This document shows positions 29,732-34,335 of a stretch of 62,714 nt of DNA, piece after piece. The notes under the pieces were generated by a model that did no database searches, was not told the origin of the DNA, and saw only the letters and a list, made by a program, of their open reading frames with translations. The DNA lies in NCBI GenBank assembly GCA_023261755.1, contig JAGDXS010000005.1:1-62714 (forward strand). Direction: 5' to 3'. Source of the stretch: Thermoplasmata archaeon (GTDB taxonomy: Archaea; Thermoplasmatota; Thermoplasmata; Thermoplasmatales; ARK-15). Position 1 is the stretch's first letter, and each line of letters begins with the position of its first letter. A program made the translations under genes and the position numbers.

Positions 29732-29880
29732 ATATATTTTGCAATTAAATCAATATATATAAAATTTATTTTTAAAAAAACCTAAATTTTTTAAAAAATT
29801 TTAAAATGATTTCAAATTTATATGCTCTATATATTTTTTTAGAGAAAATTTTTTAAAATAGTTATTTTTACCATGTTAAG

Positions 29881-30264
29881 GTGGCAGATAATTTAGAAAT
29901 TATAACTCGAGAGACTCTTTTCAAAGTGTTATTTAAGGTACTTTCAAAAAAAGGAATGGATAAAAATGAAATTTATGAATTGACAGAATATGTTCTAAGT
30001 TTTTTTGGATTTGATGATTATCTTGTGGATAATATTCTTACTCCTTTAGATAGGGATATTTTTTATTATCTTGAAGAATGTGGCATTTTTAAGGCAGAAT
30101 CTATGGAAGTAAATTTGCTCAAGGGAAGGCAATGGAGAATACATTTTTGGACATACAGGAAAGATAACATACAAAAAATAATTGAAACTGAGGACAACAT
30201 TGAAATAGAAAATCCAGAAAAACTATATGAAAAAATATTTAATGAGCATGATGAAGTAAAATGA
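29881..30264 (+). CDS. DUF6015-like small protein (probably winged helix)
   Basis: VLSFFGFDDYLVDNILTPLDRDIFYYLEECG...GRQWRIHFW resembles the Thermoplasmata DUF6015 signature as I recall it (not searched). Confidence 0.7.
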   Translation: MADNLEIITRETLFKVLFKVLSKKGMDKNEIYELTEYVLSFFGFDDYLVDNILTPLDRDIFYYLEECGIFKAESMEVNLLKGRQWRIHFWTYRKDNIQKIIETEDNIEIENPEKLYEKIFNEHDEVK

Positions 30265-31073
30265 GAGCAGTATGTGTAGTTGGATTGGGTAAAAATAGCA
30301 TAAATTTAGCTAGGAACATCTCTTTAAATTTAAAATTAAATAAATTGTTAATTAGCAATGAGCCGGGTAATGAAAACATATTCATAGAGAAAGAAAAAAT
30401 ATCATTTTTAGAATCTGAAAAGGTAAGTACAGAATACGATGAAATATTTGTAAATATTTTAAATAATTATAAAAATACTGAATTATTCATTGTAATTTCA
30501 GATATGTATGATATTTATTCAATTTCGCTAACAAAGATATTTGGAAGATTTGCCAAAAAATTTCATTTGAACAGTTTGGCTATTCTTTTATTACCATCGG
30601 CATCTGAAATAAATAAGTATGAGAATGCGGAAAAGCAGATTGAAAACTTTAAAGAAAATTATAATTTAATAATAAGGATAGGTAAAGATGGAATATTCAA
30701 GGAATTCAAAGATTTACCAATTAAATTTATTGATAAGGTAGAATATGAAATTACATTATTGCTAATTAAAAACTTAGCAGAAGTATTTTCAATTCAGGAA
30801 ATAATAAATATTTCAAGTGTATCAAAAGAGTTGGGTTTTGGTTTAAGCATCACTGAAAGAATGGATAAACTTGTCGAGGCATTTCAGGAAGCAGAATCAT
30901 CACCCTGGCTAAATAATGGTAAAAATAATTATATAATAAGTTTTAATGGTATTGTTGAATATGGTGATATAACTCAAATAGAGAAAATTATCAAATTCAA
31001 AAATTTTAATATAAAAATAAATAAGAACTTAAATCAAGGTAGGAAAATAGAAATTTTAATTTTAAATTACTAA
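30261..31073 (+). CDS. Highly divergent FtsZ/tubulin-fold protein lacking GTPase motifs
   Basis: Collinear with FtsZ: VVGLG..[63 protein letters not shown]; no GGGTGTG or NxDxxD. Confidence 0.65.
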   Translation: [270 protein letters not shown]

Positions 31074-34155: not shown

Positions 34156-34335
34156 ATGAAAATTCAAATTTGTCCAGTATGCGGAAGCACAGATATTTAT
34201 TACGAAGCTGGAATGATCACTGGAGAAAAATACAAGTGCAACAATTGCGGTTATGTGGGATCATTCATCCTTGAAATAGAGGAAAAGGATTATGAAGAAT
34301 TTTTAAAAACTATAAAGAATAACCAGCATAAATAG
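34156..34335 (+). CDS. Small Zn-ribbon protein (59 aa; missing from the ORF track)
   Basis: Manual translation MKIQICPVCGSTDIYYEAGMITGEKYKCNNCGYVGSFILEIEEKDYEEFLKTIKNNQHK*; fills the intergenic gap. Confidence 0.8.
   Translation: MKIQICPVCGSTDIYYEAGMITGEKYKCNNCGYVGSFILEIEEKDYEEFLKTIKNNQHK

Follow-up and report, generated by a model that had tools for sequence, protein, structure and literature searches.

The stretch of DNA analysed here, which we call the window, comprises 62,714 nucleotides of contig JAGDXS010000005.1 (assembly GCA_023261755.1) from a Thermoplasmata archaeon. It carries two overlapping genes on the forward strand, the second of which encodes a protein of 270 amino acids (aa) that a preliminary description, made by eye from the sequence, had presented as an FtsZ core whose loops for binding guanosine triphosphate (GTP) were gone. 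The GTP cycle is the defining property of FtsZ and tubulin, and to our knowledge natural members of the superfamily that keep the fold under selection without any nucleotide-binding loop are very rare. We call the gene mini-FtsZ, together with its short relatives, and the evidence below leads us to believe that it very probably encodes an authentic FtsZ-fold protein that is under selection and does not bind GTP canonically. The frame lies where it had been placed, on the plus strand with an ATG start. The features of the locus are as follows.

29732-29880, no strand: AT-rich gap of 149 bases between the divergent DUF998 (minus strand) and DUF6015 genes (open reading frame map, sequence)
29881-30264, plus strand: DUF6015 gene, 127 aa, GTG start, upstream of mini-FtsZ (Pfam PF19479, E 2.6e-17)
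30261-31073, plus strand: mini-FtsZ gene without G-loops, 270 aa, ATG start (open reading frame map)

The TGA stop codon of the DUF6015 gene and the ATG of mini-FtsZ share four bases (ATGA), and the gap of 149 bases is the presumed, putative shared promoter region of the two-gene unit, as read from the sequence. The window is AT-rich, with a guanine plus cytosine (GC) content of 0.23-0.37, and of 0.27 around the mini-FtsZ gene. In what follows the genera of the window's family (f1) are labelled g1 to g4, g1 being the window's own genus, and f4, f5, f16 and f21 are other families. The genomes compared are kin and do not constitute independent observations.

Results

The mini-FtsZ protein has an FtsZ fold

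The window protein matched no Pfam family at E≤1, Tubulin_2 included, and its score against the NCBIfam ftsZ model TIGR00065 (14 bits, E 0.023) did not reach the cut-off of 295.2. As a single sequence it gave three matches in the Protein Data Bank (PDB), all of them M. jannaschii FtsZ at E of about 7e-4, with residues 93-186 placed on 142-236. A profile made from an alignment of 21 mini-FtsZ family members had 50 different PDB sequences as matches at E≤1e-3; one is a tubulin/FtsZ GTPase and the other 49 bear the name FtsZ. The best match, to an FtsZ at E 1.7e-25, covered profile positions 3-241.

With this alignment as input, AlphaFold2 produced a model of the window protein with a predicted local distance difference test (pLDDT) of 91 and a predicted template modelling score (pTM) of 0.90, in which no segment has a pLDDT below 50 and the block of lowest confidence is formed by residues 51-60 (pLDDT 68). 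When the model was compared with the PDB by Foldseek, the matches listed were all FtsZ, with E down to 3.6e-17 and a template modelling score (TMq) of 0.74-0.82 to FtsZ chains over both domains, including 0.80 to 1w58, 2vap and 1fsz. The single-sequence model of the same protein in the ESM Atlas (pTM 0.85) reached TM scores of 0.82-0.85 to tubulin/FtsZ clusters. The two-domain FtsZ core, consisting of the GTPase domain, helix H7 and the C-terminal domain, is present in the predicted structures. These results show that the window frame encodes an FtsZ-derived protein in which both FtsZ core domains are kept, and the claim that the whole core is retained is borne out by the profile search and by both structural models.

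The loops of FtsZ are replaced, shortened or absent

We aligned two intact FtsZ proteins of the window's own genome with nine mini-FtsZ family members using MAFFT, and all five correspondences to FtsZ that had been proposed by eye were recovered. The positions of the former loops and of related motifs in the gene, all on the plus strand, are listed here.

30282-30305, plus strand: former T1 loop GLGKNSIN, residues 8-15, under FtsZ GCGGGGSN (MAFFT)
30411-30440, plus strand: genus-specific acidic motif, residues 51-60, in the region of the absent T3 (ESEK..T.YD in at least 6 of 7 genomes of the genus)
30495-30527, plus strand: former T4 tubulin-signature loop, residues 79-89, under GLGGGTGTGS (MAFFT)
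30591-30608, plus strand: T5 remnant LPSASE, residues 111-116, under FtsZ LPFTSEG (alignments)
30678-30695, plus strand: T6 remnant IGKDGI, residues 140-145, under FtsZ IPNDKL (MAFFT)
30783-30803, plus strand: shortened T7 region VFSIQEI, residues 175-181 (alignment gap, AlphaFold2 model)
30900-30911, plus strand: SPWL, residues 214-217, the clade's version of FtsZ SPLL (P215 and W216 invariant)

In place of T4 the protein carries SD..D..S.S (residues 80-89); at least 6 of the 7 g1 genomes have this pattern, and the same applies to LGFG, RMD, SPW, FNG, KN...KIN and GR at other positions. The T5 sequence PFSSE has become PSASE in the window protein, with P112 and E116 invariant in all 21 family sequences, and in T6 NDGL has become KDGI. 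The Asn and first Asp of the T7 motif NxDxxD are absent and E180 lies under the second Asp; in the AlphaFold2 model this part of the chain consists of a helix (154-174), a link of three residues and a second helix (178-187). KIEILI aligns under the last FtsZ strand. The protein ends three residues past this last core strand, so that there is neither a linker nor a tail, as had been noted before.

Some of these changes extend to every family member in the alignment. The columns of T3 (GLGAG) are gapped in all nine, the link between H7 and H8 is 8-9 residues shorter in all nine with the Gly-Leu-x-Asn part of T7 gone, and all nine miss about 10 residues of the C-terminal domain together with any C-terminal linker or tail. 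The second T7 Asp has an acidic counterpart in the aligned f1 members but none in f5. The glycine loops themselves differ by lineage: T1 reads GCGGAG in f5, GLGGLG in g4, and GLGKNS or an ALGDSA-type sequence in g1, and T4 reads GLGGxxGT in f5, GLGGRMGT in g4 and SD(M/I/F/L)xDxxSxS in g1. On these alignments, the loss of T1, T4, T5 and T6 is restricted to the window's genus, and the losses of T3, T7 and the tail are common to the whole clade. The preliminary description had T1, T4 and T7 all replaced; this holds for T1 and T4, whereas T7 is shortened by 8-9 residues and not simply substituted, and the account was incomplete in that T3 is missing as well and in that the T3, T7 and tail losses are clade-wide and not particular to the window.

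As judged from the aligned sequences, the lost loops are shown to have given way to newly conserved motifs (SDxxDxxSxS and ESEKxxTxYD) and not to random residues; since at least six of the seven genomes share the new loop residues, drift would not account for the replacement. Pfam Tubulin was detected in 16 of the 21 members at E≤0.01 and Tubulin_2 in none of them. Within g1 there was no Tubulin match in five of seven members and a score of 22-24 bits in the other two, under the cut-off of 33 bits, which two g4 members and one f5 member exceeded when scanned singly.

A clade of short Thermoplasmata paralogues

The mini-FtsZ clade consists of Thermoplasmata paralogues of 246-295 aa with the SPW motif, no T3, a short T7 link and no tail. 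Its f5 members are of the Aciduliprofundum/DHVE2 type, come from Aciduliprofundum sp., the DHVE2 group and metagenome-assembled genomes named Thermoplasmata archaeon, and are 16-22% identical to the window protein. The protein is rare in sequence collections. A word-indexed search with the window protein found two clusters, and nine representatives at E≤1e-3 were obtained among 1.84 billion proteins. The family profile found at least 28 clusters at E≤1e-30, with scores calculated only for the 8000 candidates that had the most words in common. Only two of these clusters carry a name, which in either case is "cell division protein FtsZ". None of the ten members listed in three clusters bears a name, and two of five exact sequences looked up were absent from that collection. 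For P0001, a 99%-identical variant, protein scans of the genome-contig and metagenome-contig collections gave no relative. Among sequencing runs, the search listed no RNA run with the gene, and the three DNA runs that it gave come from a single study and may be the window's own source.

Thirty-seven of the 61 genomes of the order match at E≤1e-3, many of them through ordinary FtsZ of 344-411 aa. Short-frame orthologues were found in all seven g1 genomes (the window's own counted), in all four g4 genomes and in one f4 genome. In f5, 12 of 14 genomes have short orthologues with frames of 259-295 aa, and the other two gave only full-length FtsZ matches with this query. A class-wide profile search of 201 genomes, whose tallies include the unpublished G149 on which no claim is based, added short forms of 266-268 aa in f16, with GSGGAGRN, SGLGGFYGT and SPWL, and forms of 309-349 aa in f21.

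An f4 member from the same search (G018, L065 1497-2237) is a protein of 246 aa that has GCGSAARR and GYLGGSYGH, carries INAHWF instead of SPW and has no Pfam match. Its partly degraded G-loops hint that nucleotide motifs may have been lost more than once in the clade.

A tree was calculated with IQ-TREE (LG+C20) from 27 rows, the 21 members of the family alignment and six FtsZ paralogues of the window's own genome, on which it was rooted; L023, which has a long N-terminal extension in its open reading frame call, and P0003-P0007, which are duplicates of loci or fragments, were excluded. The 21 family rows are separated from the six paralogues, the sole outgroup, at 100/100. Genus g1 (seven rows, 99/96) is sister to the motif-bearing g4 inside a 100/99 clade, and f5 forms a 100/99 clade of its own. 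Since the motif-bearing g4 and f5 lie outside g1, the simplest reading would be a single loss of the G-loops on the g1 stem.

Selection on the gene

The ratio of nonsynonymous to synonymous substitution rates (dN/dS) was estimated by the method of Nei and Gojobori (NG86) for 11 pairs, three of which have a proportion of synonymous differences (pS) above 0.75 and consequently no dS. In the window's subclade dN/dS is 0.26 between the window gene and L013 (proportion of nonsynonymous differences, pN, 0.26; pS 0.61), 0.19 between the window gene and L014 and 0.22 between L013 and L014; elsewhere it is 0.07 for L016 and L017, 0.10-0.16 in g4 and 0.05 in one f5 pair, all of these being rough NG86 values, as dS is near saturation in most pairs at 27% GC. 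Across the three pairs of the window's subclade pN is 0.26-0.32 versus a pS of 0.61-0.71, and the frame is open in 7/7 g1 genomes at 31-55% identity. Purifying selection maintains the mini-FtsZ frame and the gene is not decaying, in keeping with the earlier claim of an intact frame.

For the same genome pairs dN is 0.20-0.41 in mini-FtsZ, 0.05-0.14 in DUF6015 and 0.10-0.13 in the universal stress protein (USP) gene downstream. Within g1 the ratio of dN in mini-FtsZ to that in DUF6015 takes the values 2.3 and 3.3 for the subclade that includes the window and 2.0 and 4.3 for the other subclade; g4 has 4.5. Because the motif-bearing g4 has a ratio of 4.5 versus 2.0-4.3 in g1, the G-loops were lost with no visible further relaxation. 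With its GTPase fold kept, as predicted, its nucleotide motifs lost and its frame under purifying selection, the protein has the sequence and fold properties of a pseudoGTPase.

Full-length FtsZ paralogues of the same genome

As the preliminary description had suggested should be looked for, canonical ftsZ genes are present elsewhere in the genome (1.22 Mb, 93% complete). Of seven proteins that match the ftsZ model, four exceed the cut-off, two fall slightly short of it and one is weak. The six strong matches are full-length FtsZ proteins (346-389 aa) in which T1 and T4 are intact, encoded on contigs C33, C23, C37, C4, C35 and C11 (loci L001-L006). The C11 protein has a degenerate T7, with HISYSE in place of NxDxxD. 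The copies on C37 and C4 are very close to each other, with tree branch lengths of 0.06-0.07.

Another locus of the genome, on C21 (L007 1020-3028), holds a row of three genes that encode a 143-aa protein that matches RHH_8 weakly (E 0.0015), a 270-aa protein with a tubulin/FtsZ domain and an N6/N4 DNA methylase. The gene of the 270-aa protein overlaps that of the 143-aa protein, and its product has intact FGGAGA and FGGGMGTGG motifs and matches Pfam Tubulin at 6.1e-10. The row resembles a TubZ-like or partition-type module such as mobile elements carry. This short FtsZ-like gene was rejected as a mini-FtsZ paralogue, as the family profile gives no match to it at E≤1e-3.

Neighbouring genes

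On the 3' side mini-FtsZ is followed by a tandem USP gene, a glycosyltransferase gene and a gene for an LPG_synthase_TM membrane protein, and on the 5' side DUF998 and DUF763 genes lie on the opposite strand (Pfam assignments). Farther downstream, a 59-aa open reading frame (34156-34335, plus strand) encodes two CxxC pairs (CPVCGS ... CNNCGY) and is zinc-ribbon-like; it is flanked by the LPG_synthase_TM gene and by 2-oxoacid:ferredoxin oxidoreductase genes.

The DUF6015 gene is directly 5' of mini-FtsZ in 11/11 f1 loci with an orthologue (g1 and g4) and in 0/9 f5 loci, where mini-FtsZ is flanked by a gene for a GCD14-type tRNA methyltransferase and one for an enolase-superfamily protein. DUF6015 itself occurs in 61/61 genomes of the order, mostly in two copies, and in 0/14 control genomes, and 8/8 further loci of this DUF6015 paralogue have no adjoining mini-FtsZ. 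The linkage is lineage-specific, since DUF6015 is present without mini-FtsZ and the f5 neighbours are different.

The fold of DUF6015 was also searched for. Its profile found nothing in the PDB below E 0.11, and its AlphaFold2 model (pLDDT 78) had no Foldseek match to the PDB at E≤0.001, the nearest, non-significant neighbours being the extended winged helices of TFIIE-alpha/TFE-alpha (E 0.03, TMq 0.46). A predicted complex of mini-FtsZ with DUF6015 (score 0.02, mark 0.32) is evidence neither way. The literature search found no paper on DUF6015. In four f5 genomes (G032, G041, G023 and G050; loci L035, L036, L040 and L042) the better-scoring DUF6015 paralogue lies inside frames of 727-740 aa, two of which have one in-frame TGA; these frames may reflect a fusion or reading through from one gene into the next.

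Discussion

A probable nucleotide-independent FtsZ-fold subunit

In FtsZ the phosphates of the nucleotide are bound by main-chain amide groups of the T1 and T4 glycines. A subunit's active site is made complete by the T7 loop of its neighbour, and attachment to membrane anchors such as SepF is through the C-terminal peptide. The mini-FtsZ clade would offer no T7 catalytic loop to a neighbouring subunit and would have no tail-dependent membrane anchoring, and from the absence of the GTP loops, of T7 and of the tail it follows that the window protein should be neither a polymerising GTPase nor a division motor. Since loss of the motifs brought no increase in the relative rate of change, the function of the clade probably never depended on the GTP cycle. 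The retained FtsZ surfaces would then bind other proteins, the most obvious candidates being the six intact FtsZ paralogues of the genome. Retained FtsZ surfaces combined with a defective interface are classically what makes a subunit an end-cap or a modulator of assembly, and the window protein could act in this way on FtsZ filaments. On balance, we regard a selected, nucleotide-independent FtsZ-fold subunit that binds other proteins as the probable and best overall explanation of the gene; that it is FtsZ filaments in particular on which this protein acts is plausible, and we propose it tentatively.

Several observations weigh against this explanation, in addition to the roughness of the dN/dS values. 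Mini-FtsZ changes 2-4 times faster than its neighbour genes. In one of the seven g1 genomes (G006) the conserved ATG reads ATT/ATA, and the first ATG/GTG/TTG stands 17 codons into the open frame. The gene was not found in g2 (0/2 genomes) or in g3 (0/3), so that it is dispensable in close kin, and in one g2 genome (G007, L045 1968-4358) the order of the DUF6015, USP, glycosyltransferase and LPG_synthase_TM genes is kept with mini-FtsZ cleanly absent, the DUF6015 gene overlapping the USP gene directly. The presumed inability of the protein to hold GTP in the manner of FtsZ is, moreover, a judgement from its sequence. Finally, the alignment supplied to AlphaFold2 contained motif-bearing relatives. 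We considered that the fold might be an artefact of this input and rejected the idea, since the single-sequence model of the Atlas shows the same fold and the fold is therefore independent of the alignment.

Among the other explanations, the one that survives best is that mini-FtsZ works with the co-transcribed DUF6015 protein, possibly a small, winged-helix-like nucleic-acid- or protein-binding factor, in a task unrelated to FtsZ filaments, with the FtsZ fold as a mere scaffold. The overlap in ATGA implies that the two genes share a transcript and are translated in a coupled manner, they adjoin in every f1 locus with an orthologue, and DUF6015 shows strong conservation, with 65-77% identity among proteins of the family and a dN/dS of 0.03-0.08, and has its nearest, if non-significant, fold neighbours among winged helices. 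We nevertheless judge this explanation unlikely, given that every genome of the order has DUF6015, those that have no mini-FtsZ included, that none of the eight further loci has the two genes side by side, and that mini-FtsZ of f5 keeps other company.

Two further proposals concern the old nucleotide pocket. The pocket could be filled by the protein's own acidic and Ser side chains, those of SDxxDxxSxS and ESEKxxTxYD, which as a nucleotide mimic would lock one conformation, so that a constitutively nucleotide-free protein would dock on the filaments of the six FtsZ paralogues and cap or tune them. If this were true, a multi-FtsZ division apparatus in Thermoplasmata would have a regulator of FtsZ fold that the cell encodes itself; we hold so detailed a scheme to be quite unlikely. 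Alternatively, the pocket could still bind a nucleotide, an anionic or a metal ligand through non-canonical residues of the Ser/Asp motif and of ESEK..T.YD and serve as a ligand-regulated switch. The conservation of the T4 and T2-T3 replacements across both g1 subclades points to a specific role of the pocket region, and the invariance of P112 and E116 of T5 would suit a ligand site; set against the replacement of the phosphate-holding glycines by bulky and acidic side chains, and the loss of the T6 Asn as well, such a switch appears distinctly improbable.

That the gene is a functionless, relaxed remnant of a redundant FtsZ paralogue on its way out, as its loss from two sister genera, its rate, the disappearance of all canonical functional motifs and the orthologue with a non-ATG start position might suggest, is very improbable in view of the frame open throughout g1, the excess of pS over pN, the new motifs conserved in the replaced loops, the equally fast change relative to the neighbour in the motif-bearing g4 and a model that is confident over its full length.

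A selected, nucleotide-independent FtsZ-fold subunit thus remains our preferred explanation. The suggestion that the gene represents an undescribed cytoskeletal or division system was overstated: the gene is a derived branch of a small clade of paralogues, other members of which have G-loops, it was lost from two sister genera, and it has no conserved partner beyond the adjacent DUF6015. What the clade does provide is an evolutionary series among close kin, with full G-loops in f5, partial ones in g4, none in g1 and the gene deleted in two other genera. This series permits a direct test of what the FtsZ fold is capable of without GTP, and of whether a T7-less clade has its targets in the FtsZ paralogues, which are unusually numerous in these small genomes.

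Comparison with known systems

We assigned the protein neither to FtsZ proper (TIGR00065; PF00091 plus PF12327), from which it departs in four defining sequence features (score, T1/T4, T7 and tail), nor to CetZ, since the family profile prefers FtsZ, nor to Tubulin_2 (PF13809) and the FtsZl proteins, as there was no Tubulin_2 match for the window protein (E≤1) or for the 21 members (E≤0.01). In the parts of the literature available to us there is no named group of short, T7-less Thermoplasmata FtsZ and no G-loop-free FtsZ paralogue, though the surveys' supplementary lists of "non-canonical" proteins may hold such; nor did the search find a paper joining pseudoGTPases and FtsZ.

With canonical archaeal FtsZ (M. 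jannaschii, PDB 1fsz/1w5e, TIGR00065) the window protein shares the two-domain core, the order of secondary structures and the SPxL motif. It differs in having no T1, T3 and T4 glycine motifs, altered T5 and T6, a shortened T7 link and no N-terminal extension, C-terminal linker or tail, and it is about 100 residues shorter than the FtsZ proteins of its own genome (346-389 aa). The motif-bearing mini-FtsZ proteins of the f5 type and of other Thermoplasmata, a group that has no name, belong to the same clade and share its length, SPW, the absent T3, the short T7 and the missing tail; they differ in that they keep GCGGAG and GLGGxxGT, pass the Pfam Tubulin cut-off and are not adjacent to DUF6015.

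CetZ and the FtsZl proteins are known to keep their nucleotide-binding motifs. They are like mini-FtsZ in being lineage-restricted archaeal offshoots of FtsZ with changed C-termini; CetZ differs in that the family profile matches the CetZ-type structure 3zid at E 3.1e-6 versus 1.7e-25 for FtsZ. The sources describe archaeal CetZ and other "non-canonical tubulin-superfamily proteins" (PMC9856176) and FtsZl-1 and FtsZl-2 with the Tubulin_2 domain (PMC2875224, as described in PMC9871819).

A functional analogy is offered by plant ARC3, whose FtsZ-like domain is not known to bind GTP. ARC3 is described as a direct inhibitor of chloroplast Z-ring assembly with an FtsZ-like domain (10.1101/2024.01.08.574726; PMC12232670). 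The likeness lies in an FtsZ-derived module that acts on genuine FtsZ and does not itself build the ring. ARC3 differs in being eukaryotic and multi-domain, with a middle and a MORN domain, and the two are compared by shared FtsZ ancestry only. Should the window protein cap or tune filaments, FtsZ-derived inhibitors such as ARC3 would have a counterpart in archaea; otherwise the protein would show that the FtsZ fold can be reused simply as a scaffold.

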